Below, one piece after another: positions 39,876 through 50,844 of a DNA stretch of 64,000 bases (position 1 is its first letter; every line of letters starts with the position of its first letter). Location of the stretch: positions 1,427,015 through 1,491,014 of the forward strand of contig JBMNJZ010000001.1 of assembly GCA_050951925.1 (NCBI GenBank), in the 5' to 3' direction. A program made the translations under genes and the position numbers. The notes below the pieces were generated by a model that searched no databases, had not been told where the DNA came from, and saw nothing but the letters and a program-made list of their open reading frames with translations. The stretch is from Saccharofermentanales bacterium (GTDB lineage: Bacteria > Bacillota > Clostridia > Saccharofermentanales > DTU023).

Positions 39876-39962
39876 GCGGAAATGGCGGAATTGGCAGACG
39901 CGCTAGTTTCAGGTACTAGTGATCGATCGATCATGCAGGTTCAAGTCCTGTTTTCCGCACCA
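39876..39962 (+). tRNA. tRNA-Leu (anticodon CAG), long variable arm, CCA encoded
   Basis: Acceptor GCGGAAA/TTTCCGC, anticodon stem CTAGT/ACTAG with loop TTCAGGT, variable stem TGATCG/CGATCA, T-loop TTCAAGT. Confidence 0.88.
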
Positions 39963-39967
39963 ATCAA

Positions 39968-40011
39968 ATGCAGTGATTGATACATATGTATCGTTCACTG
40001 CATCGTTTTTT
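39968..40011 (+). terminator. Intrinsic terminator after tRNA-Leu
   Basis: ATGCAGTGA ... TCACTGCAT with an inner GATACA/TGTATC extension, followed by CGTTTTTT. Confidence 0.7.
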
Positions 40012-40027
40012 AACCCCTAAAAACCCA

Positions 40028-40081
40028 GATAACAAAAATCAACATCGCCTCACGATTCTAAAGCACAAGCGTAAGGCGATG
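40028..40081 (-). terminator. Possible terminator of the island operon
   Basis: Minus strand: CATCGCCT-(23-nt loop)-AGGCGATG followed by TTGATTTTTGTT. The large loop makes this weak. Confidence 0.35.
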
Positions 40082-40107
40082 CGCACATAACAAATCAAAA
40101 CAAATAA

Positions 40108-41715
40108 CTAAACACTGAAATCTGGTGTGTTCTCTCTGCAGTAGGAAACCCAGTTGCCGTTTTCGATTAATTCTTCTCGACCGAGCTGGCGGAACAACTC
40201 CATACGGCTCTGTGGGGCGAGATCGTACCGCAGGGCAGCCGACGCAAAGAGATGTTTCATTTTTTCATGGTCAATGCTCTTTCGAGCCAAGGACTGCTTG
40301 CCGTAGTATCCCGAAACAAAAACCGTCACCGCGGAAAGACTTCCCCATAGAATCTTAATCCAAACTCGCAAAGTAAAACCGGAAAGAACAATCACCATGG
40401 CGTTCCGGAAGAAATACTCCAAAACCAAGGCTAACAGCCAGAGTACTATGGTGCAAGTCAACATGGCGCGGGTAGCGAGTTCCTGGGTACGGTGCTTTCC
40501 GGCATCCCTGCGCTCAGCTCTTTCGTGGTAGGCTCTTTGGCCGTCAATCCAGGCCTTTTTTACCACATCGGCCGGCACGGCTTCCTTTTCCGGAGCGCCG
40601 ATTAAAAGCGCATAGACCGCGCTTTTTACCCACGTGGCATCGTGCTTCTGTGTCCAGGTAAAGTCATCGCAAACACATTCCCTGCTGCCAAGCGCATAAA
40701 GATATAGCTGAACCCGCAAGGCCTCCGCCAGAGCTCTATACTGTAGGTATTTATCGTGCTGCCGCCGGCGCGCAATCTGTTGGTAGAAAAGAGCATATAG
40801 GACTATGGCACCGCCATATCCGATTAGACATATATTGAGCTCGGCCTCATCGTAGAGCAGGTAAAACATCACCAGCATTACGCTGAATGCGGCAAGCACG
40901 CCCATAATCTTTAAGTAGTGTTTCTGCCACTTCATCGAGAGCTGATCCGCCGCATCATATACCTTTTGAAGCCTGTTGCTTACAGCATGATGAATATATT
41001 CCGGAGCTAAGAGCGGTTCGACGTCCTGAAAGCTTTCCTTTCGCACATCTCGGTTAAAGCGATCTGTTTGTGCCAACACTTCCTTCAGGCTCCCCGCTTC
41101 ATTTTCCAGCAAGTTCACCGTAACGGGGAATTCCTGAGTTTTCGATACTCTGGGTGTAGCGATGTGGATTACCGCGCCCTCATTAGAGGGGCGGAACATT
41201 TTGCCGTTCTGATAATCGCCTTTCAACATAAAGTCCACAGCCTCTGCCGTTCCGCATCCATGCTCCGAACCAGGCTCTCCGTTCCACAGCGCAAGCAGTA
41301 CATGGCTGTGAGCAGCCACGTAAATACCTGTCTGGCGATAAAGATTGTCTCGTTCTTCTCCTTCCGGCCCGCTATAAGGAACCACGAACACATCCGCGGC
41401 CTTGTTTCGCAGGGCTTGATACTCTTCCGACTCTTCGGCACTAAAGTCCTTGCGGTACTCCTCTTCGGGCATGGGAAGCGGGCAATAGAGCGGAATTTGC
41501 AGAGAAAACGCCACGCGGGCACAGAGTTGATCTGCCCCCGCCGCCAGTGAATTCAGCATCCAAACAGGAGAATTGGGATGCTTCCGTTGAATCTTTTGTA
41601 ATTCTCCTGAAACGGCATTTTCCAGTGCGGGGATATCCTCCTTACGGATATCCCTGTGGCCGGTAACACCCACCACGATGGGTATTGTGTTCTTGTTTGC
41701 CTGTGTGTCGCTCAT
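40108..41715 (-). CDS. SLOG-domain (YpsA/DprA/LOG-like) protein with a C-terminal four-TM module (SLATT/LSDAT/DUF4231-like)
   Basis: N-terminus has IVVGVTGHRD, LAAGADQL, PLYCPLP and GCGTAEAV, which match the Rossmann-like SLOG pattern of YpsA/LOG. The C-terminal half has two pairs of TM helices, each preceded by an amphipathic helix (KWQKHYLKIMGVL.., WIDGQRAYHERAERR..). Start at MSDTQ, 20 nt after the upstream stop. Confidence 0.6.
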   Translation of the reverse strand: MSDTQANKNTIPIVVGVTGHRDIRKEDIPALENAVSGELQKIQRKHPNSPVWMLNSLAAGADQLCARVAFSLQIPLYCPLPMPEEEYRKDFSAEESEEYQALRNKAADVFVVPYSGPEGEERDNLYRQTGIYVAAHSHVLLALWNGEPGSEHGCGTAEAVDFMLKGDYQNGKMFRPSNEGAVIHIATPRVSKTQEFPVTVNLLENEAGSLKEVLAQTDRFNRDVRKESFQDVEPLLAPEYIHHAVSNRLQKVYDAADQLSMKWQKHYLKIMGVLAAFSVMLVMFYLLYDEAELNICLIGYGGAIVLYALFYQQIARRRQHDKYLQYRALAEALRVQLYLYALGSRECVCDDFTWTQKHDATWVKSAVYALLIGAPEKEAVPADVVKKAWIDGQRAYHERAERRDAGKHRTQELATRAMLTCTIVLWLLALVLEYFFRNAMVIVLSGFTLRVWIKILWGSLSAVTVFVSGYYGKQSLARKSIDHEKMKHLFASAALRYDLAPQSRMELFRQLGREELIENGNWVSYCRENTPDFSV

Positions 41716-41735
41716 TCTTAACGGTCTCTTTTTTA

Positions 41736-43718
41736 TTACATTCTGTAAACAGTCAAGCCGTCGTACCAACGAATGAGCTCCAACATCTTTTCCATGGGCA
41801 CGGCATCCTTGGTTTTTTCCGCTTCTGGCAATTGTTCAAAGGGAACCATATCGTGATGCATGCGGGTACATTCTCGCATGATATTGTCGTTCTTGCCGTT
41901 CGGCAGCTTTCCGACATGGCCGGTACCGAATTGCCAGCCCATATCACTCTTCTCGTCGCACCAGCGCCGGTGCTCCGCTCCGGCGATAACTTCCATATCC
42001 GCAGGAGTAAAATGAGCAACAGTTTCATAGTCTACGGCACGATCAGTATAAAAGCAGTTGATCTTTTCCAGCACGGCGGCAAATCCCTTGGCCTGCGCGA
42101 TATTAGAAAGCTTATACTCAAGAGAAAGATCCTCTTCAAAAGCCCGCACCATATCTTCGGGTGTTCCGGCGCCGCAGTAGCTAGCGTGGAGAGACAGAGC
42201 GAAACGATAGAAGTTCAGATAATTGCTGTCGGAGAGATACAGCCCCGTACGTTTTGCTTTCTCTACCGAAGAAACGGCGATAGTACCGCTGTAATCCGGC
42301 TTTTTTACATCGCTTTCAAACTTGGGGATGATATCACGAAGAGCCACTATCTCGTCGATATCATCTAAAAACTTACTGCGATGCTCTCGCACGGCACCGG
42401 ACTTTTTGATATAGCCGCCGCTGAGCATATTCTGATAGTCTTTACTGTCGAGGGTTCTGTCCTTGTAGGCCTTGTCGTAAAAAAAAGTCCACGTTACGCT
42501 ATCCTCCGACGGGAATACCATGTCGAAATCAAAGGCGTAAATATCGCTGCGGGTATTTTGGCCGTAAGAAGCACGATCCCAGCACTGCAGTTCGTCACAA
42601 AGTATCAAAAGGTAGGCCAGTGGTTGACCGTCCTTAAGACGCAAAGGCTCGTCGGTATAAAGAAAGCTCCGCATGGTGAACTGAAAAAGGCTGTTATGCA
42701 GAATTATGGCGCAAAAACTATCAAGCACGGCTTTCGGGATTTGCTCCAAGCTTTCGATTTCCCGATGACGATTTAGATAAGTCTTCGCCAACACCAGACC
42801 GCTGAAATAAGCATGGTCCATGTAGAGATAGTCCTTCTCCGCCGGGTTCTCGTGAACCGCACGATCTTTAAGAGCTTTTTCCAACTTGTGGCGGCAAAGA
42901 TAGGGCTCGGCCTCCGTGCGGGATAGATAACTTTCGGCCAAGCGTTCAGTAATGGCGTGAGCGTAAAAATCGTTCAAGTCTCCTAAACGAGACATGCTGA
43001 ATTCGTCCATGCGCTTATACGACACATAGGGAGCGAAACCTCTGTCATCGTTGTTATTTTTATCTAACTTACACACATAGGCTTTCATCTGCTGATGAGC
43101 GATTTCAAAGGGATAGCCTATGTCGTGGAAGAGACTGGTCATTCCCCAAAACTCCAGGAAGTGACAGGCCGCTTCCCGCCCTTCCTCAAGGCAGAAGCGA
43201 GCATTATAGGCTTCTCGAAAAAGCCGGTGGTTTTTGTAGATGGAAAGACCTATGCAAAATACATATACACTGTGAGAATAATGGTCACGGTGCCTCATCA
43301 GAAGAGAGCTTGCATTATACTCGTGTTCCGAGAGCATCTCCAACAGAATTCCGGTAGCATCATAACCGGCTCCGAAGGGCTCAAAAATTTCGCAGTAACA
43401 GTAGTAGATGTCAAAAGCGTCTTCCCGTGAACCACTGTCCAAAAAACGACCGATGGCCTGCTCAAAGCTGAGGCGGTCCAAATCGCGTTCCATGTTGAAG
43501 GGAATCCGGCTACGACCGCTGCTACGGCCGTCTAAGTCGTTCAGTTCATGGCGGGAAGGATCAAACTTTAAGTCTTCGCAGCAATCCCGCAGGAAAGACA
43601 GGGAATCCTGCCCGTAACTGCTGCGGCACTGAGGCAGCGGCGGAATAAGCACGGTATCGAAAAGACCGTACTGATCCCGATTTTTCTTTTGCATCTTTTC
43701 CAGGGCACGATAAGCCAT
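41736..43718 (-). CDS. HD-domain phosphohydrolase with a C-terminal RyR (ryanodine-receptor repeat, PF02026-like) domain
   Basis: HD ligand pattern: RHRDHYSHSVYV ... LFHDIGYPFE ... IILHN ... LCDELQCWDR. The C-terminus AEHRRWCDEKSDMGWQFG...HHDMVPFEQLPEAEKTKD matches the RyR-domain consensus (He.W...GW.yG...hp.lvpyeeLpe.ek.kD). Start at MAYRALE (SD AGGAGA), 11 nt after the upstream stop. Confidence 0.65.
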   Translation of the reverse strand: MAYRALEKMQKKNRDQYGLFDTVLIPPLPQCRSSYGQDSLSFLRDCCEDLKFDPSRHELNDLDGRSSGRSRIPFNMERDLDRLSFEQAIGRFLDSGSREDAFDIYYCYCEIFEPFGAGYDATGILLEMLSEHEYNASSLLMRHRDHYSHSVYVFCIGLSIYKNHRLFREAYNARFCLEEGREAACHFLEFWGMTSLFHDIGYPFEIAHQQMKAYVCKLDKNNNDDRGFAPYVSYKRMDEFSMSRLGDLNDFYAHAITERLAESYLSRTEAEPYLCRHKLEKALKDRAVHENPAEKDYLYMDHAYFSGLVLAKTYLNRHREIESLEQIPKAVLDSFCAIILHNSLFQFTMRSFLYTDEPLRLKDGQPLAYLLILCDELQCWDRASYGQNTRSDIYAFDFDMVFPSEDSVTWTFFYDKAYKDRTLDSKDYQNMLSGGYIKKSGAVREHRSKFLDDIDEIVALRDIIPKFESDVKKPDYSGTIAVSSVEKAKRTGLYLSDSNYLNFYRFALSLHASYCGAGTPEDMVRAFEEDLSLEYKLSNIAQAKGFAAVLEKINCFYTDRAVDYETVAHFTPADMEVIAGAEHRRWCDEKSDMGWQFGTGHVGKLPNGKNDNIMRECTRMHHDMVPFEQLPEAEKTKDAVPMEKMLELIRWYDGLTVYRM

Positions 43719-43729
43719 GTTTTCTCCTA

Positions 43730-44710
43730 TCAGTTCATAACTTCTACTGTAAACGGAGCATTCTCCGGAATCTCCACCGGGAAAATATTTGCCATTATGC
43801 ATACAGTCTCCAGCTCTGCGCAATAAAGCAAAGGTTCCAGAGTTTCCAATTCCCCGCCGGCTATGCTAATTTTGCGAAGTTGAGGGAAATACTGCATGTA
43901 TTTAAGCAGCTCCTCGTTGCAATTATTAAGCCAAATCTCATCATTTGAACAGGTTGTCAAATTCTCGTAGGTCAGAGGTGTCTCCTGGCCCCAATCGTAA
44001 AAGCCAATGGCATCATATAGCATCTCCCGGGTCTTTTCCGACTCAAAGACTATCTCTTCCGTCAGCTTTTGATTGGTCTGCTCAAAGATACCGTGGGTAA
44101 TGACATTGGATCCCATCTGTACCACTTCTTTCGGCTCCGGCTGCTCTGCAAGCGCCACCGGCGCAAGGCCGGGGAGCATATCGTTGAACCAACCGTTATT
44201 CAGGCCGTAGACACCTGTGCCAAGTGCGATTATGAGGCAGACCGCAACGGCGATGATAGCTGTCCAGAAGTTACCCTTCTTTGCGGTACCGACACCTCGT
44301 TCATAGCCGGTGACTCCATCGCCTATGAGGACATCGTCCAGCAAGGCTCGAAGCTCTGCGTATTCCTTAACGGTCTCACATCCGGAAAGCTTGGGATGGA
44401 CTTTATCCCCCAGGGTAAACTGATATACTGGGCGAGTATCCGCTCCGGCGTGCACCACTTCGTTTTCGCAGTTGGGAGAGATTAAGGATTCTTCCGACAC
44501 AAACACCAATACCGCGGAGGCGGCGCGGAGGTGATCTTCTATGTTCTTCGGCCATTCACTGCCCGGGGCTATGCCTTCGTCATACCAGAGCCTATATTTC
44601 TCGGAAAAAAGGGCTTCGATTATGGGCATCACCTTTTCGGAATTCCGGTGGGCATAGCTTACGAAGATATATGGCTCGCGGCCTTCATAAGCGGGAATAC
44701 GTTCACTCAT
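43730..44710 (-). CDS. TIR domain - single TM - extracytoplasmic domain with short LRR-like C-terminus
   Basis: N-terminus matches the TIR_2 pattern: PYIFVSYAHRNSEK...RLWYDEGIAPGSEW...AVLVFVSEESLISPNCENEVVHA. TM is FWTAIIAVAVCLIIALGTGVYGL with Lys on the N-side. The C-terminus has L..L..I.I-type repeats. Start at MSERIP (SD AAAGGAGGG). Confidence 0.7.
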   Translation of the reverse strand: MSERIPAYEGREPYIFVSYAHRNSEKVMPIIEALFSEKYRLWYDEGIAPGSEWPKNIEDHLRAASAVLVFVSEESLISPNCENEVVHAGADTRPVYQFTLGDKVHPKLSGCETVKEYAELRALLDDVLIGDGVTGYERGVGTAKKGNFWTAIIAVAVCLIIALGTGVYGLNNGWFNDMLPGLAPVALAEQPEPKEVVQMGSNVITHGIFEQTNQKLTEEIVFESEKTREMLYDAIGFYDWGQETPLTYENLTTCSNDEIWLNNCNEELLKYMQYFPQLRKISIAGGELETLEPLLYCAELETVCIMANIFPVEIPENAPFTVEVMN

Positions 44711-44726
44711 TTTATTCTGCCCTCCT

Positions 44727-45593
44727 TTAGTGTTCCACAACGACAGTGATTCCGGCATTGCATAGATCGCGGGCGAAGATCACTTGGTCTTGGCTGATTT
44801 TTACGATTTCAATACCCTTAACCTGCGCAAGCGGCCACAGGGCTACATTTGAGGGAATATCCGAAACATTTACCGTGGTAGCGGATACTTCTTTGATGTT
44901 TAGGAGTGTGGTAAAAGTTCCGCCCGAGAGGTCGAGTTCACCCACAGCTTTTCCCGCCATGGCGGCAATGCCCTCGTCGCTGTATTTGGCTATATTCACA
45001 TATTTGCTTCCATTCGTGTTCTGCAGAATGTATGCTGCCGACGTGCGCTCACGTATCATCGAGCCAACATACAGGGCAAAGACCAGTACGACTACTGCCA
45101 CCATAGCAGCTATGATGTAATTTCGCTTGCGGTTGAATTTGCGTTTTTCCATGCCTTCGCCTACCATGGCCTGAGTCAGCACCCCGCTTTTAGTTAAGGC
45201 TTCCGCCGTTTCCTCAGGGCTGCCAAGGGCAATCACCGGAATGTTGGCAAGCTGCATGTCCAGGCCGTAGCCGAGCTGAAATTCTCCAAATTTTACACAG
45301 ACAAGGGGCTTTCGCAGGCTCAACAGGTAGTTGATGGCATTGCGGAAGGCGAGGCTTTCTATGCTCTTTTCCGACAGGAACACCACCGCTCCGCTGCAGT
45401 GAGTTATGGTCTCCGCCAGTGCCGCGGGGCTTTGAGCGAACTTGCCGCCGCAACTATCGCAGCTCAGCCTAAAACCGCGGCTCACAAGAATATCCGCAAC
45501 AGCCGCCGCCGCAGGCTCATCGGCCGGACTACAACCTATATAGGCAAAATCGCCTATACCTGCATAGGGAAGATAGCTAAAGTGCTTTTTCAT
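44727..45593 (-). CDS. Degenerate TIR-like domain - single TM - small extracytoplasmic LRR-like domain
   Basis: Same architecture and spacing as its neighbours (DFAYIGCSPADE...AVVFLSEKSIESLAFRNAINYL). TM is YIIAAMVAVVVLVFALYVGSMI, preceded by KRKFNRKRN. Start at MKKHFS (SD AAGGAGAG). Confidence 0.5.
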   Translation of the reverse strand: MKKHFSYLPYAGIGDFAYIGCSPADEPAAAAVADILVSRGFRLSCDSCGGKFAQSPAALAETITHCSGAVVFLSEKSIESLAFRNAINYLLSLRKPLVCVKFGEFQLGYGLDMQLANIPVIALGSPEETAEALTKSGVLTQAMVGEGMEKRKFNRKRNYIIAAMVAVVVLVFALYVGSMIRERTSAAYILQNTNGSKYVNIAKYSDEGIAAMAGKAVGELDLSGGTFTTLLNIKEVSATTVNVSDIPSNVALWPLAQVKGIEIVKISQDQVIFARDLCNAGITVVVEH

Positions 45594-45604
45594 ATTATCT
45601 CTCC

Positions 45605-47203
45605 TTAGTTGTAGTAGTAGTTGTCGCAATACTCGATGACAAAATGTGCGTCTTGCAACTGTTCATCAGCCAGCTCTCTCATATCTGATGAGATAATCAG
45701 GCGTCGCAGAGACTGAAGTTGCTGAACAGGAGTCAGGTCGCTTAGATTCTGACAGAAATGTATGTCCAGAATATCTATACCCTCAAAGAGCTCCAAGCCA
45801 TCCAAAGAGGATACTGTACTCCAGCCTAAACTTAGTACACCACCGAGATTGATAACAATACCGCTCAATTCCCGCAAAGAGTCTATTTGCAGGCCTTGCC
45901 ATGAAAACTCACGGATGGGTTTTCCTTCTATATATGGCAATACGGCCTGCAATTCATCCTGATCAACAAAAAGCTTATCAAAACTCTCTATATCGCCAAG
46001 CGAAGAATACTCATCTATCTGCGTCTCCCTGATATCAAGATGGATGTATGGAAGAGTATTAAGAGCGGGAAGCTTGCTAACCGGGGCAGCGTTTATAATA
46101 AGGCAGTTCAGCTTATTTGCCGTACTCAGCGCTGAAATGTCCCTCACATTGGTAGCACCTATGTTCAGGTGCTCAAGCTTTGATAGCCTTTCGACACCCG
46201 AAATGTCGGAGACGTAAGTCGCATCCAACATAACGAACACAAGATTTTGGCAGTCCCACAGCGGCGAGGGATCGGTAATATCTGTGGCGGTAAGGAAGAT
46301 GGCTTCCAGATTGCTGAGTGCCCCTATTCCCTCTATAGAAGAAATGGGGTTGGCGCTCAGGTCGAGATAGCTAAGTTTTTTCAAGCAAAACAAGGGTGAA
46401 ATATCGGTAATTTGGTTGCCGCAGATGCAAAGGTATTCCAAATTGGGCATATACGAGAAGATTTCAAGATCTTCGGAAGTCAGGCTGCCCACCGGGACAG
46501 GTCCTTGAACTTCCATATTGTCGTTTACGCTCATACCAAATTGAACAGCACTACGATCGCTGAACTCATACCAGCCGTGAACAAGACTGCCGTATGCCCG
46601 GTCTCCCACAATATAGAGTTCCGTAATGCTCTCTAAATCTTCTCTGGTCAAGCCCCAGCGCTGTGCCGCATTCTCGAGCGCCTTGGCGGGAGCAATAAGC
46701 AGAGGATTCACAACAGCAAAGAACAAAATTACTGCAGCTACAATTGGCGCCGTCACCATTGTGATGGCACGATTGCGCTGATATTTCTTCTGGGCCTTGG
46801 TTACGGCCATATCTCGGAAAATGAAAGCTTCTTTCAGCTTGGAGACAAAAGCCTCGTCCATGTTGTCCGCGAACAGCGCCTGCTGGCTGCCGAGCTGCAT
46901 GGTGCTCCAAGGCGTAGAGGGGATATCTTCCAAATATACACTGAGTATTTTCTGTCCGCGGGCAACAGCCGTATCCACTATGGAGCGAAAGCGTTCGCTT
47001 GCGGAGAACTCCGCCGTAACGAATAGCAGCACGCCGAAGGCCCGTTGCAAGCGCCCTTTTTCGCGGCGGTCGAAGCGGTCCGCGTACCAGAATTGTGCGC
47101 CATCTACGGCCAAAGTTTCCAGCACCGGAAGAATCTGTTCCTCTTGTTCCCGCGGGAATGCAACATAGATATAGGGTCTGTCATTTTTGCAGTAGCGTTC
47201 CAT
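45605..47203 (-). CDS. TIR-like domain - single TM - leucine-rich-repeat (internalin-type, 22-aa period) ectodomain
   Basis: N-terminus: PYIYVAFPREQEE...QFWYADRF...VLLFVTAEFSASERF. TM at aa 146-171, preceded by KAQKKYQRNR. From aa ~252 there are at least 7 consecutive 22-residue repeats of L..L..L.L....I.DISPL type. SD is AGGAGGGAATC. Confidence 0.7.
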   Translation of the reverse strand: MERYCKNDRPYIYVAFPREQEEQILPVLETLAVDGAQFWYADRFDRREKGRLQRAFGVLLFVTAEFSASERFRSIVDTAVARGQKILSVYLEDIPSTPWSTMQLGSQQALFADNMDEAFVSKLKEAFIFRDMAVTKAQKKYQRNRAITMVTAPIVAAVILFFAVVNPLLIAPAKALENAAQRWGLTREDLESITELYIVGDRAYGSLVHGWYEFSDRSAVQFGMSVNDNMEVQGPVPVGSLTSEDLEIFSYMPNLEYLCICGNQITDISPLFCLKKLSYLDLSANPISSIEGIGALSNLEAIFLTATDITDPSPLWDCQNLVFVMLDATYVSDISGVERLSKLEHLNIGATNVRDISALSTANKLNCLIINAAPVSKLPALNTLPYIHLDIRETQIDEYSSLGDIESFDKLFVDQDELQAVLPYIEGKPIREFSWQGLQIDSLRELSGIVINLGGVLSLGWSTVSSLDGLELFEGIDILDIHFCQNLSDLTPVQQLQSLRRLIISSDMRELADEQLQDAHFVIEYCDNYYYN

Positions 47204-47247
47204 GATTCCCTCCTGAGTTGTTGCGATATATGATTACAAAATTGGCA

Positions 47248-47282
47248 GTATGATATTATCATACATGCTTTCTGTCTTACAA
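47248..47282 (-). promoter_or_regulatory. Predicted promoter of the island operon with an overlapping perfect palindrome (operator candidate)
   Basis: Minus strand: TTGTAA (47282-47277), 18 nt, TG-n-TAATAT (47258-47253). The 17-nt palindrome GTATGATA-N-TATCATAC (47248-47264) covers the -10. Confidence 0.45.
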
Positions 47283-47550
47283 TTTACTACTTCCCGGCCG
47301 GTTTGTCTTAAGAAAAAAGCGGCGAGCCGAACGATTGCACATAAAAAGCTCATATACCAGTTTTATCCCATGAACCCAAATTGAATAAGATTCGCATTGG
47401 ATGAGAGAATATGAAAGACGTAGATAACCTAAATGAGATATGAGCATCTTGTCATACAGAATAAAAAGTGTTCTTATTTAGATGAACTACAACATGAAGC
47501 AAACACTTGCAAAATGATCACTCTGGCCAAGAAAGAAACGAGGTAATAAA

Positions 47551-48129
47551 ATGAAAAAGTTAAGCTGTTTGATTGCTCTGTTGCTTGCCTTCTTCATGCT
47601 CCTGCCTTTTACAGGCTGCAAGCAAAATTCGCCTGCAGGATCAGATAACAAGGTATCCGGTTCACCTGCCGCAAACGATTCTTCCATCGTATCCGAACCG
47701 AAGGATAGTTCTGAGCCGGCGCTTCCGGCGGAACCGTCCTTTGTCAAGCACAATTCCATTCAATCCGCACTTCCGTCACCTGGAGATGCCACAGTAACAA
47801 TGACCGGCGACGAGACTATTGATCTGACCGGCATCCCGCTTGCGGGGCGCAAGGAAATCATTTTGGACGGCCACATACTGACATTGACTGGAGCTTACGG
47901 TATTTCAGCGGATGCAGTTTTGGATATCAAGCCGGGCAATGGCACAAACGGAGGTACGCTTAACATGGCGGGTATGACATTTGACTTCGGCTTCCTTGAC
48001 GGAGAGCTTCCTCCCGAAAAGGCACTCGTGGAGATACGCCCCGGCGTAACGATAGTCGAACCGGAATACCCGGAAGGTGTCAGCATAAGGGAGTTCCCGG
48101 GCGTATTGACAGTCATTCAATGTGATTAA
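47551..48129 (+). CDS. Predicted secreted lipoprotein of unknown function
   Basis: Signal peptide with lipobox LPFTGC, Ser/Pro-rich linker, small Gly/Thr-rich C-terminal domain. Divergent from the TIR operon. Confidence 0.6.
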   Translation: MKKLSCLIALLLAFFMLLPFTGCKQNSPAGSDNKVSGSPAANDSSIVSEPKDSSEPALPAEPSFVKHNSIQSALPSPGDATVTMTGDETIDLTGIPLAGRKEIILDGHILTLTGAYGISADAVLDIKPGNGTNGGTLNMAGMTFDFGFLDGELPPEKALVEIRPGVTIVEPEYPEGVSIREFPGVLTVIQCD

Positions 48130-48315: not shown

Positions 48316-50844
48316 TTGAAAGGAAGAATCACCTTGGCTGCTAAAGATACATTGCTTGTCAGCAAAATCTCGGTTCGCCAACTGGTTGCCGGCGCAAGAA
48401 AAACCGGCAGCCTGACCAACCCCAGCTATAGCTCCGCCCGGGCCGCGGATGGTATTAAAGCACATAAGAAATTTGTCAATTTGATGGCGGAACAAATTGA
48501 TAATCCTGATCTGTTCAGCGAATTTTCTTTAGAAACATCTTTTACCACAGAAATTTGCGGTTTGCAGTATCGATTGGAGATCTCAGGTCGTTGCGACCTC
48601 TGGTACCCGGACCGGGATGGTCCATGCCTAATTGAGATCAAAAGTTATCGCGGACAAGAGCGTGCTGAGAATGAGTCCGGGAATTCATTGCACTGGGCTC
48701 AGGCGGAAACTTATGCTTATATGCTCCTGCAAAAAGTTCCTGCCCTGCAAAACTGCAGAAAGATACGTGTCTGTTTAGCTTATGTTGCAGTAGATAGCAA
48801 TGATTATTATTTAATCGAACGAGCATTCGATTCGCCCGCTCTGAAGAAAAAATTCACAGATCTCTGTACCGGCTGGCTGCAAAATACTGTCAGCCTGATA
48901 GATTACCGGAAGACTAGAAATCTTGTGAATGCTGCTGGGGGCTTCCCCTATGACAATCTGCGTGAAGGCCAACGCTTTTTTATGCGGCAGGCAATTGCGG
49001 CTATGCGCGATCGCAGCACTTTATTTGCCCAAGCTGCTACAGGCAGTGGCAAAACAATGGCGGTAGTTTATCCTGCGTTAAAAGCGCAGGCAGCCGGACT
49101 CGGTTCAGTCATCTTCTATCTGACAAATATGTCGTCAACGAAATTGATAGCAGAACAGGCTATTGCCGATTTAAGACAGAATGGCTTTCTGGTACGCAGT
49201 CTCACTTTGACTGCCAAAGAAAAAATTTGTCTGCAACCAGATCTCTACTGCGAAATGAAGATTTGCCCTTATGCTCAGGACTATTATGAAAGATTGCCCT
49301 CCGCTCTCCTGGAGCTGGCATCCATAAAAATGGCGGATCACGATACGATTATAGAGATTGCGCAGAAGCATAGACTGTGTCCTTTTGAGTTGCAGCTGGA
49401 CTTTTCTGAATGGTGCGACATTGTGATCGGCGACTACAATTATCTTTTTGATCCTCGCGTTTATCTGAGCAGATTTTTTGCCGACGACAATAAGGATGCG
49501 CATATTATCCTGATCGATGAAGCCCATAATTTGCCGGCAAGGTCACGACAGATGTACAGCTCCTTCCTGGAGCTTTCCGCTTTACGCCGAGTTGAGCAAC
49601 TGCTGTCGGCACCTGACATCGCCGATCTGGGACCCACTAAACATGCTTTGAACCGCCTTCGTCAAATAATTGGCTGTTTAGATGGGCTTCTGCCTTATTT
49701 GCGCGACCTTGGATTGCAGTTCGCGGATCAAAATTTATTGGGTACGAAAATTAACCAACAGGAACTGCTGCGCACGGAACGGTTCATTGGAGCCAGAAAA
49801 CCTTTGGCGAATTTTATCAGCAATATAGGTTCTTTAGTCTATGCTTTAGGGCAGTTTCTGGATTGCTTCCCGGAATGGGAGTCGCGGCGTACCGTGCTGG
49901 AACTTTGGTTTGAGCTGAATTTTTTCCTGCGCGTAGCTGAATCCTACTATGACAAAAACTATATCACTATGATCCGTCAAACTGCACCAGACGATCTGAC
50001 GATCGGCTTGCTATGTCTGGATGCGGCCAAAAGTCTTACAAACAGATATTATCGACGCTATCCGATAATCTTTTTCTCTGCGACTTTGAGTCCTGCCTCT
50101 TACTACCAGAGGTTGCTATATTCTTATATGACAGAAAATCCACCGGATTTTCTTCAGCTCGCTTCGCCCTTCGCGTCGCGAAACAGATTTGTGCTTACAG
50201 TTGATCATTATTCTGTTCGCTATCAAGATAGAGCAAATACTCTTTTCCCTATTTTGCGTTTAATTTACCAAGCGGTTCAAATCAGACCAGGACATTATCT
50301 CGTATTTTGCCCGTCATTTGTTTATTTGCGGCAAGTAGCTCAGGCACTGAAACAAATTAACATCTCAGAGGAATGGCAAATTATGATCCAGAAACCTAAA
50401 CTCAGCGAGCAAGAAAAAAACAAATGGTTGGATCGCTTCCGCAACACAGGCGGTAAACCACTATTAGCTTTTGCCTGTCTCGGCAGTATTTTTAGCGAAG
50501 GGATTGATCTAATCGGAGAGCAATTAATTGGCGTGTTTGTTATTGGCACCGGTCTGCCCCGTCCCTCACCGGAACGTGAGCTGATGCGCCAATATTACGA
50601 GCAGGAATTCGGCAGTGGTTTTCACTTTGCCTATACTTTCCCCGGTTTTAATCGGGTTATGCAGGCTGCCGGCCGGCTAATCCGCCATGAGGACGACCGG
50701 GGAATAATCATTCTGATTGATGATCGCTATTCACGTGAAGATTATCGGGAAATTATCCCGACTGACTGGTTGGCGCAATCTGTTCATGATGATGAGGAAA
50801 CATTAGCCTTGATCACAGAATTCTGGGACTGTCAATTGACCTAA
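48316..50844 (+). CDS. DinG/XPD-family (Rad3-like) SF2 helicase with an N-terminal PD-(D/E)xK RecB/Cas4-like nuclease domain
   Basis: N-terminus has GRCD...IEIKS plus QAETYAY (the D/ExK and QxxxY motifs). Then Walker A AATGSGKT, four Cys (CLQPDLYCEMKICP...LCPFE, FeS-type), DEAHNL box and C-terminal helicase motifs (QAAGRLIR). Start is uncertain: TTG at 48316 or TTG at 48334. Confidence 0.75.
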   Translation: MKGRITLAAKDTLLVSKISVRQLVAGARKTGSLTNPSYSSARAADGIKAHKKFVNLMAEQIDNPDLFSEFSLETSFTTEICGLQYRLEISGRCDLWYPDRDGPCLIEIKSYRGQERAENESGNSLHWAQAETYAYMLLQKVPALQNCRKIRVCLAYVAVDSNDYYLIERAFDSPALKKKFTDLCTGWLQNTVSLIDYRKTRNLVNAAGGFPYDNLREGQRFFMRQAIAAMRDRSTLFAQAATGSGKTMAVVYPALKAQAAGLGSVIFYLTNMSSTKLIAEQAIADLRQNGFLVRSLTLTAKEKICLQPDLYCEMKICPYAQDYYERLPSALLELASIKMADHDTIIEIAQKHRLCPFELQLDFSEWCDIVIGDYNYLFDPRVYLSRFFADDNKDAHIILIDEAHNLPARSRQMYSSFLELSALRRVEQLLSAPDIADLGPTKHALNRLRQIIGCLDGLLPYLRDLGLQFADQNLLGTKINQQELLRTERFIGARKPLANFISNIGSLVYALGQFLDCFPEWESRRTVLELWFELNFFLRVAESYYDKNYITMIRQTAPDDLTIGLLCLDAAKSLTNRYYRRYPIIFFSATLSPASYYQRLLYSYMTENPPDFLQLASPFASRNRFVLTVDHYSVRYQDRANTLFPILRLIYQAVQIRPGHYLVFCPSFVYLRQVAQALKQINISEEWQIMIQKPKLSEQEKNKWLDRFRNTGGKPLLAFACLGSIFSEGIDLIGEQLIGVFVIGTGLPRPSPERELMRQYYEQEFGSGFHFAYTFPGFNRVMQAAGRLIRHEDDRGIIILIDDRYSREDYREIIPTDWLAQSVHDDEETLALITEFWDCQLT

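Follow-up and report, generated by a model that had tools for sequence, protein, structure and literature searches.

Why should a single operon encode three membrane proteins with TIR-like domains if only one of them keeps the glutamate expected of a catalytic TIR? The question is raised by five genes on the minus strand of a 64,000-nucleotide stretch of DNA from a Saccharofermentanales bacterium (GenBank assembly GCA_050951925.1, contig JBMNJZ010000001.1, positions 1,427,015 to 1,491,014; this whole stretch is called the window below). The genes form an operon in the order A-B-C-D-E, with short gaps and a ribosome binding site (RBS) for each gene. An earlier reading of the letters alone (the sequence-only reading) proposed one enzymatically competent TIR, in C, and two non-catalytic TIR-like partners, A and B. 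The residues at the Cat1-type active site and their conservation within families support this proposal. With moderate confidence we go one step further: A, B and C would make up a membrane receptor in which C is the enzyme, and this receptor would drive Thoeris-like nucleotide signalling through D and E.

Active-site residues of the three TIR-like domains

The NADase (NAD+-cleaving) site of Cat1 is lined by S7, H8, N9, N10, D33, S68 and E74, and a second TIR supplies K121 and Y122, which makes the site composite (PMC12162218). For the proteins of the operon, searching the PDB with single sequences was uninformative and family profiles were used instead. The family profile built for C finds Cat1 (5e-6), the 7uxr TIR protein (7e-5), AbTIR and the TIR domains of MyD88 and TLRs. 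In these profile-to-PDB alignments Glu84 of C stands opposite the glutamate of Cat1 (Glu74) and that of 7uxr, and opposite a Gln of MyD88, while C as a whole can be aligned at all seven active-site positions of Cat1 (Table 1). S18, Y19, H21, D44 and E84 are invariant among C homologues down to 48% identity; the invariant residues of C number 26 and cluster in box 1, the BB loop and helix alphaC.

Table 1. Residues of C, A and B opposite the positions that line the NADase site of Cat1
Cat1	C	A	B
S7	S18	A15	G20
H8	Y19	F16	C21
N9	A20	P17	S22
N10	H21	R18	P23
D33	D44	A41	D46
S68	S78	S69	S80
E74	E84	I75	A86

Four of the seven positions of C are gone in A and B. The Ser, Tyr and His of box 1 and the BB-loop motif are absent from both, whereas the canonical Asp is absent from A and kept in B (D46). 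The BB loop of A is six residues short (PGSEWP), and this is the most conserved stretch of C. The alignment thus finds the residue set of a catalytic TIR in C and not in A or B.

The sequence-only reading had placed the glutamate of C at codon 44459-44461, with Ile in A and Ala in B at that position, and hhalign of the family profiles agrees. It gives 98.3% for A with C (E 1.8e-14), 97.1% for B with C and 97.3% for A with B, and Ile75 of A and Ala86 of B lie opposite Glu84 of C in all three alignments. The three peptides that it quoted all occur in the translations of A, B and C, and its span for the TIR domain of C is correct (Table 2). It had also said that the idea would fail if a structural alignment put a Glu or Asp of the two partners into the active site. 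Neither the profile-profile nor the profile-to-PDB alignments, nor the secondary structure of the AlphaFold 2 models, place one there: Ile75 and Ala86 are the sixth residue of helix alphaC in the models, and no acidic residue is found in A or B at i-4, i-3, i+3 or i+4 of this position. From the residues at the site we infer that C is the only NAD+-cleaving TIR of the three, and that A and B are pseudo-enzymes without NADase activity.

The profile match of C to MyD88 and to TLR TIR domains, together with the TLR-like architecture of the proteins, could also be taken to mean that all three TIRs serve as scaffolds without enzymatic activity, in line with how TLR and MyD88 signalling is classically understood, the glutamate of C being structural. 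This we regard as very improbable. MyD88 carries its Gln at the aligned position, C keeps the seven Cat1 positions (five of them invariantly), and domains predicted to bind nucleotides are present next door, in D and E.

Conservation of the glutamate within families

Glutamate occupies the catalytic column in all 120 C homologues and in 18 of 18 trio-type C orthologues of related loci. It is found in none of the A orthologues (0/36 from databases, 0/24 from the loci), where that column is filled by I, V, T, A, L, S or C. For B the counts are 4/34 among database homologues and 0/20 among locus orthologues (4/54 overall). To judge from these alignments, the pattern is a trait of the families and not the product of chance. 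Three of the four glutamate-bearing B homologues were identified by their identifiers (P0128, P0130 and P0153; FRNEIN); they still lack the box 1 and BB-loop motifs. The B family also has an alphaC motif of its own, the invariant R84-N85-x-I-N88 (R-N-x-I/V-N across the family).

Relatives of the A domain are not easily retrieved: with its 206 N-terminal amino acids a word-indexed search returned one fragment, and an exhaustive search of representatives was needed to find relatives. Among 111 more distant TIR_2 relatives obtained for this domain, 81 have the glutamate. The canonical ones carry the motifs SYAH, WYD.G and NCRRE, which the A orthologues lack. Because the distant relatives of A are canonical TIR_2 domains with the glutamate and these motifs, A derives from a glutamate-bearing TIR_2 lineage. 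An 'MQL..Q' motif of that lineage is kept in A, is present in B and is absent from C.

Shared plan and fold

A, B and C are built to a common plan: a soluble N-terminal domain of about 145 amino acids, one hydrophobic helix and an ectodomain of the leucine-rich repeat (LRR) type. A cluster of Lys and Arg precedes the transmembrane helix and no signal peptide is found in any of the three, so that by the positive-inside rule the TIR domains are predicted to be cytoplasmic. The ectodomains are unequal, as the sequence-only reading had noted: an internalin-like LRR of about 360 amino acids in A, and LRR-like regions of about 105 in B and 150 in C. That of B has weak LRR matches in the PDB, and LRR_4 is found in some homologues of C.

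Pfam gives no TIR match for the N-terminal domain of A; the protein yields LRR families and weak, sub-threshold matches. AlphaFold models are flavodoxin-like with the beta-alpha order of a TIR, both for residues 1-150 of A (predicted local distance difference test score, pLDDT, 87) and for full-length B (pLDDT 90). The best fold matches of these models in the PDB are SARM1, a B. cereus TIR, TRIF, RRS1, TIR-STING, SPARTA and AbTir. On the evidence of Pfam, hhalign and model-based fold matches taken together, A, B and C all have the TIR fold.

The trio as a unit

Loci were collected from C homologues and from a genome scan with a B profile. This resulted in 19 independent loci spanning Clostridiales, Oscillospiraceae, Lachnospiraceae, Anaerovoracaceae, Erysipelotrichaceae and relatives. 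Wherever the contig covers the three genes, which is the case in 16 loci across Clostridia and Erysipelotrichales, they stand in the order A(n)-B-C, in unrelated genomic neighbourhoods; the three remaining loci lie on contigs that end early and show nothing in conflict with this order. B and C are paired one to one in every locus whose contig covers the genes. Because the order is so constant, it is likely, as far as gene order can tell, that the three proteins assemble into a heteromeric receptor.

Across those 16 genomes the TIR domain of C has a mean pairwise identity of 52%, against 40% in A and 36% in B, and the ectodomains stand at 33-36%. The higher value for C fits a stronger constraint on its active site. 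Together with the constant synteny, the slower evolution of the C TIR backs the partner role that had been suggested for A and B.

The number of A genes varies. Tandem copies are found in three loci: four in L009 (1047-9028), two in L013 (2759-5886) and two in L025 (6905-9982). Among the four copies of L009, identity is 75-93% in the TIR-like domain and 44-54% in the LRR ectodomain. We propose this identity pattern as the signature of a variable recognition subunit, A, that would dock onto constant partners. A mazEF-like pair lies between the A copies of this locus.

Thoeris loci typically hold multiple TIR genes. This, and the duplication of A in some loci, would also suit three independent receptors, each with its own cue and without a complex, comparable to multiple ThsB proteins. 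Such an arrangement appears improbable to us: without the catalytic residues, A and B would be unable to signal alone, gene order and the one-to-one pairing of B and C are constant in the loci covering the genes, and the near-identical TIR-like domains of A paralogues are what a shared docking partner would lead one to expect.

Neighbouring genes D and E

The C-terminal domain of D matches RyR domains in the PDB at 1.6e-31 (profile search). Pfam recognizes RyR in six of nine D orthologues (best 6.6e-17), whereas the D of the window taken alone reaches 23 bits against a cut-off of 27.4. H583, W586 and D638 are invariant in D orthologues, giving a His-x-x-Trp motif with a downstream Asp, and the domain belongs to RyR Repeat12 (PF02026). 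Two products of TIRs, the cyclic ADP-ribose (cADPR) isomers 2'cADPR and 3'cADPR, are bound or hydrolysed by phage proteins with RyR domains; the residues used by phage RyDEP are His75, Trp78, His100 and Asp117, which are conserved across PF02026 (PMC13232231, a 2026 preprint). The 480 N-terminal amino acids of D contain the invariant HD-like motifs RDHxxH, HDxGYPxE, DH and CDExQxW, and this half finds no match in the PDB by profile search. E combines a SLOG-like N-terminal domain with a SLATT-like membrane domain and has no sequence relative in the PDB. A TIR protein together with a SLATT protein constitutes type VII Thoeris, where the signal is cADPR (bioRxiv 10.64898/2025.12.03.692087).

D and E lie beside the trio in the window, and the same neighbours, in changing order, recur in some nine of the roughly fifteen loci that are informative. 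C, D and E are tightly spaced in the window, so that a TIR gene shares an operon with putative effectors carrying predicted signal-binding domains, as is characteristic of Thoeris. In Lachnospiraceae loci (L019:2726-3607, L020 and L022:4587-5468) E consists of the SLATT-like domain only (293 amino acids), without the SLOG-like part.

The link between D and TIR genes was also followed from the side of D, in a metagenome scan that yielded 80 loci, 25 of them flanked by 3 kb or more on each side. A TIR gene lies within 5 kb of D in 19 of the 25 well-flanked loci, usually immediately downstream, and over all 80 loci 40 of the 55 TIR proteins near D genes carry the glutamate at the catalytic column. 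Three loci (L077, L081 and L097) show a variant order, namely D, a B-like gene without the glutamate, a C-like gene with it, a large TIR protein and E; the same variant is seen in L071, where the contig ends within the C-like gene.

The HD-like/RyR family of D (metagenome loci L027-L106) is much wider than the trio, and its members are usually followed directly by an N-terminal-TIR protein of another architecture. Among the D-linked TIR proteins are a recurrent type with 'SYATLLELM' around the glutamate and a type of 750 amino acids with Arg at the column. One further record (L026; MT836912.1, 'UNVERIFIED Bacteriophage sp.', 8.3 kb), the viral status of which is doubtful, encodes a D relative of 774 amino acids (32% identity over the full length) followed by a TIR_2 protein of 703.

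Some loci with D and E contain a fourth TIR protein (L006:12676-14154 and L017:15206-16687). This protein begins with a polytopic membrane domain and ends with a TIR_2 domain (8.7e-19), and its TIR carries an 'EMHLASLQA' motif that resembles the MQL motif of A and B. The idea that these extra TIRs lack the glutamate was rejected, as the C-terminal TIR domain has it in 'CLKEINYA'.

Proposed mechanism and the evidence weighing on it

In the mechanism that we propose, A, B and C are single-pass membrane proteins with the TIR domain inside and the LRR outside, assembled as one receptor in which A would be the variable ligand-recognition subunit and B a constant adaptor. Both pseudo-enzymes would stem from a catalytic TIR_2 lineage, of which they retain the fold and, at the surface, a conserved 'MQL' motif. 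Binding of an extracellular ligand, chiefly by A, would change the packing of the cytoplasmic TIR domains. Two TIRs together build a composite NADase site, as in Cat1, so the active site of C could be completed by the pseudo-TIRs of A and B or, alternatively, kept inactive by them. Once active, C would produce an ADP-ribose-derived nucleotide (for example a cADPR isomer) or consume NAD+. D may read the product through its RyR Repeat12 domain, coupled to the HD-like domain, and E may read it as well, through a SLOG-like domain coupled to a SLATT-like membrane effector. The purpose of the system would probably be defence.

Several observations weigh against this proposal. At the active site, Glu79 of B is kept in 31 of 34 homologues and Glu48 of A is near-invariant, which makes both candidate compensating acids; four B homologues have the canonical glutamate, and C itself has an invariant Asn four residues before its glutamate, where the residue is Trp in both Cat1 (W70) and the 7uxr TIR. 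Glu79, these four homologues and the alphaC motif peculiar to B would fit a catalytic A or B that uses a displaced acidic residue or other chemistry. We consider this extremely improbable in view of the box 1 and BB-loop losses common to both proteins (with the Asp lost from A as well, though kept in B) and of TIR domains that are less conserved than that of C.

Further doubts concern the domain labels of D and E. The HD label of D derives from motifs, with a weak Pfam match (0.19) in one of nine members. For E all matches are sub-threshold: SLATT_3 of NCBIfam at 3.6e-6 and 27.1 bits (cut-off 45), DUF4231 in eight of eight orthologues (best 5.3e-6), and YpsA/YAcAr at 0.0005-0.08 in three of four N-terminal domains. 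PADLOC matches are weak too (ThsB1 to C at 0.0019, none for D or E), and the operon of the window is surrounded by housekeeping genes, not by a defence island.

Finally, in about six informative loci neither D nor E lies within 7-10 kb of the trio, and one locus has D only. Because such trio-only loci exist, the branch through D and E is not obligatory. They would also suit a simpler scheme in which C is a terminal effector that depletes NAD+ without a signal, D and E being accessory or unrelated (for example in ADP-ribose clean-up), and depletion is how many TIR systems work, Cat1 and SPARTA among them. Still, we find this scheme unlikely. D and E recur next to the trio in the majority of informative loci although their order varies, the D family is tied to glutamate-bearing TIR genes in most D-centred loci, and both proteins have domains of kinds known to bind TIR-made nucleotides.

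Comparison with known systems

None of the proteins A to E is named by PADLOC or NCBIfam, and the literature that we searched contains no description of a trio of TIR, transmembrane and LRR proteins or of host RyR-domain partners of TIRs. Judged by its sequences, the system belongs to no named system and would be TIR-based nucleotide signalling in kind.

It is like Thoeris (type I with ThsB and the SIR2-SLOG protein ThsA, type VII with a TIR protein and the SLATT protein ThsH) in that a glutamate-bearing TIR gene lies beside genes for SLOG-like and SLATT-like proteins, there are several TIR genes per locus and an ADP-ribose-derived signal is expected. Unlike in Thoeris, the TIRs are membrane-anchored with LRR ectodomains, two of the three are syntenic partners without catalytic residues, and there is an extra HD-like/RyR protein.

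Animal TLRs, which form heterodimers such as TLR1/2 and TLR2/6, share the modules LRR, transmembrane helix and TIR. Here, however, the TIR is N-terminal and the topology type II, so the order is inverted and the architecture is not that of a TLR; moreover one subunit looks enzymatic and the LRRs are internalin-like. The likeness is most likely a convergent assembly of shared domains.

The sequence-only reading had pointed to catalytic/non-catalytic pairing in other TIR assemblies, and plant RPS4/RRS1 is indeed comparable. RPS4 has E88 whereas the RRS1 TIR is inactive, so that in the plant pair, too, a TIR with the catalytic glutamate is combined with one without it; the fold matches of A include the TIR of RRS1. 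A difference is that RPS4 and RRS1 are NLRs of the cytosol with NB-ARC domains, whereas ours are predicted membrane receptors with two non-catalytic partners.

C resembles the NADases Cat1, AbTir and SARM1 in that it can be aligned at all seven Cat1 positions, Glu74 included, and the composite site made from two TIRs offers a rationale for the non-catalytic partners. Those proteins differ in being homo-oligomers or filaments triggered by a cytosolic ligand, and C has Asn in place of Trp.

The likeness of D to phage RyDEP (PMC13232231) lies in the PF02026/Repeat12 domain and in the His-x-x-Trp and Asp, which correspond to H75, W78 and D117. Unlike RyDEP, D is host-encoded, fused to an HD-like region of 480 amino acids and located beside TIR genes. 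Hence D would be a receiver or terminator of the signal of its own cell, not a means of viral counter-defence.

A more far-reaching possibility, which we put forward as tentative, is that the operon encodes a bacterial counterpart of the TLRs: interchangeable LRR subunits (A) would respond to something extracellular and, in a pseudo-TIR/TIR heteromer with B and C, turn on production of a cADPR-type messenger, which a host protein with an RyR domain and a SLOG-SLATT channel would read. In that case no transmembrane pathway of TIR signalling would have been known in bacteria before this one, and cADPR sensing by RyR Repeat12 would be an ancient cellular function that extends beyond phage counter-defence. 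Known bacterial TIR systems use soluble, usually homo-oligomeric proteins to sense infection intracellularly, whereas here the TIRs are tethered to the membrane under LRRs, the catalytic one is tied to two degenerate TIRs within a conserved set of three genes, and the variable subunit A is duplicated in some loci, with LRRs that diverge fast. The trio offers a natural test case for pseudo-TIRs that regulate or complete a composite NADase site. With host RyR-domain proteins beside TIR genes, the long-debated connection between cADPR and RyR becomes testable in small bacterial proteins.

Features and surroundings of the operon

Coordinates are collected in Table 2. The gene starts agree with public calls for this species (a Saccharofermentanales metagenome-assembled genome from biogas reactors).

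Table 2. Features of the operon and its surroundings (positions in the window)
Feature	Position	Strand	Description
Gene A	45605-47203	minus	532 aa; RBS and ATG; LRR_4 5.9e-17
Gene A, parts	46769-47203 (TIR-like, res 1-145)	minus	Transmembrane helix res 147-165; internalin-like LRR, ~360 aa
Ile75 codon of A	46981-46979	minus	ATA
Gene B	44727-45593	minus	288 aa; RBS and ATG; TIR_2 4.7e-4 (sub-threshold)
Gene B, parts		minus	Degenerate TIR-like domain res 1-150; transmembrane helix res 160-178; short LRR-like ectodomain
Ala86 codon of B	45338-45336	minus	GCC
Gene C	43730-44710	minus	326 aa; RBS-supported start; TIR_2 5.3e-15
Gene C, parts	44336-44677 (canonical TIR_2, res 12-125)	minus	Transmembrane helix res 152-170; LRR-like ectodomain
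Glu84 codon of C	44461-44459	minus	GAA; putative catalytic glutamate; Glu100 if counted from the upstream ATG
Gene D	41736-43718	minus	660 aa; HD-like N-terminal region (motifs only); C-terminal RyR Repeat12-type domain, ~res 560-655
Gene E	40108-41715	minus	535 aa; SLOG-like (YpsA-like), ~res 1-197; C-terminal SLATT/DUF4231-like membrane domain
tRNA-Leu(CAG)	39876-39962		Directly downstream of gene E
Divergent open reading frame	47551-48129	plus	192 aa; lipoprotein-type signal (…LLPFTGC…); no family match
DinG/XPD-like helicase	48316-50844	plus	DEAD_2 and Helicase_C_2 in public calls

A scan for promoters and terminators finds a weak promoter-like site upstream of A and nothing else informative, an Rfam scan of the operon and its upstream region finds no element besides the tRNA-Leu, and gene B has no relative on known plasmids in a plasmid search. 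The divergent gene with the lipoprotein-type signal was considered as a member of the system and rejected, since it occurs only in loci of the same species. The helicase gene lies just upstream of the operon and is followed by recO, era and ybeY. Over the operon (40001-48000) the G+C content is 0.48-0.50, against 0.41-0.46 in the flanks; raised G+C beside a tRNA-Leu gene hints at an acquired island.

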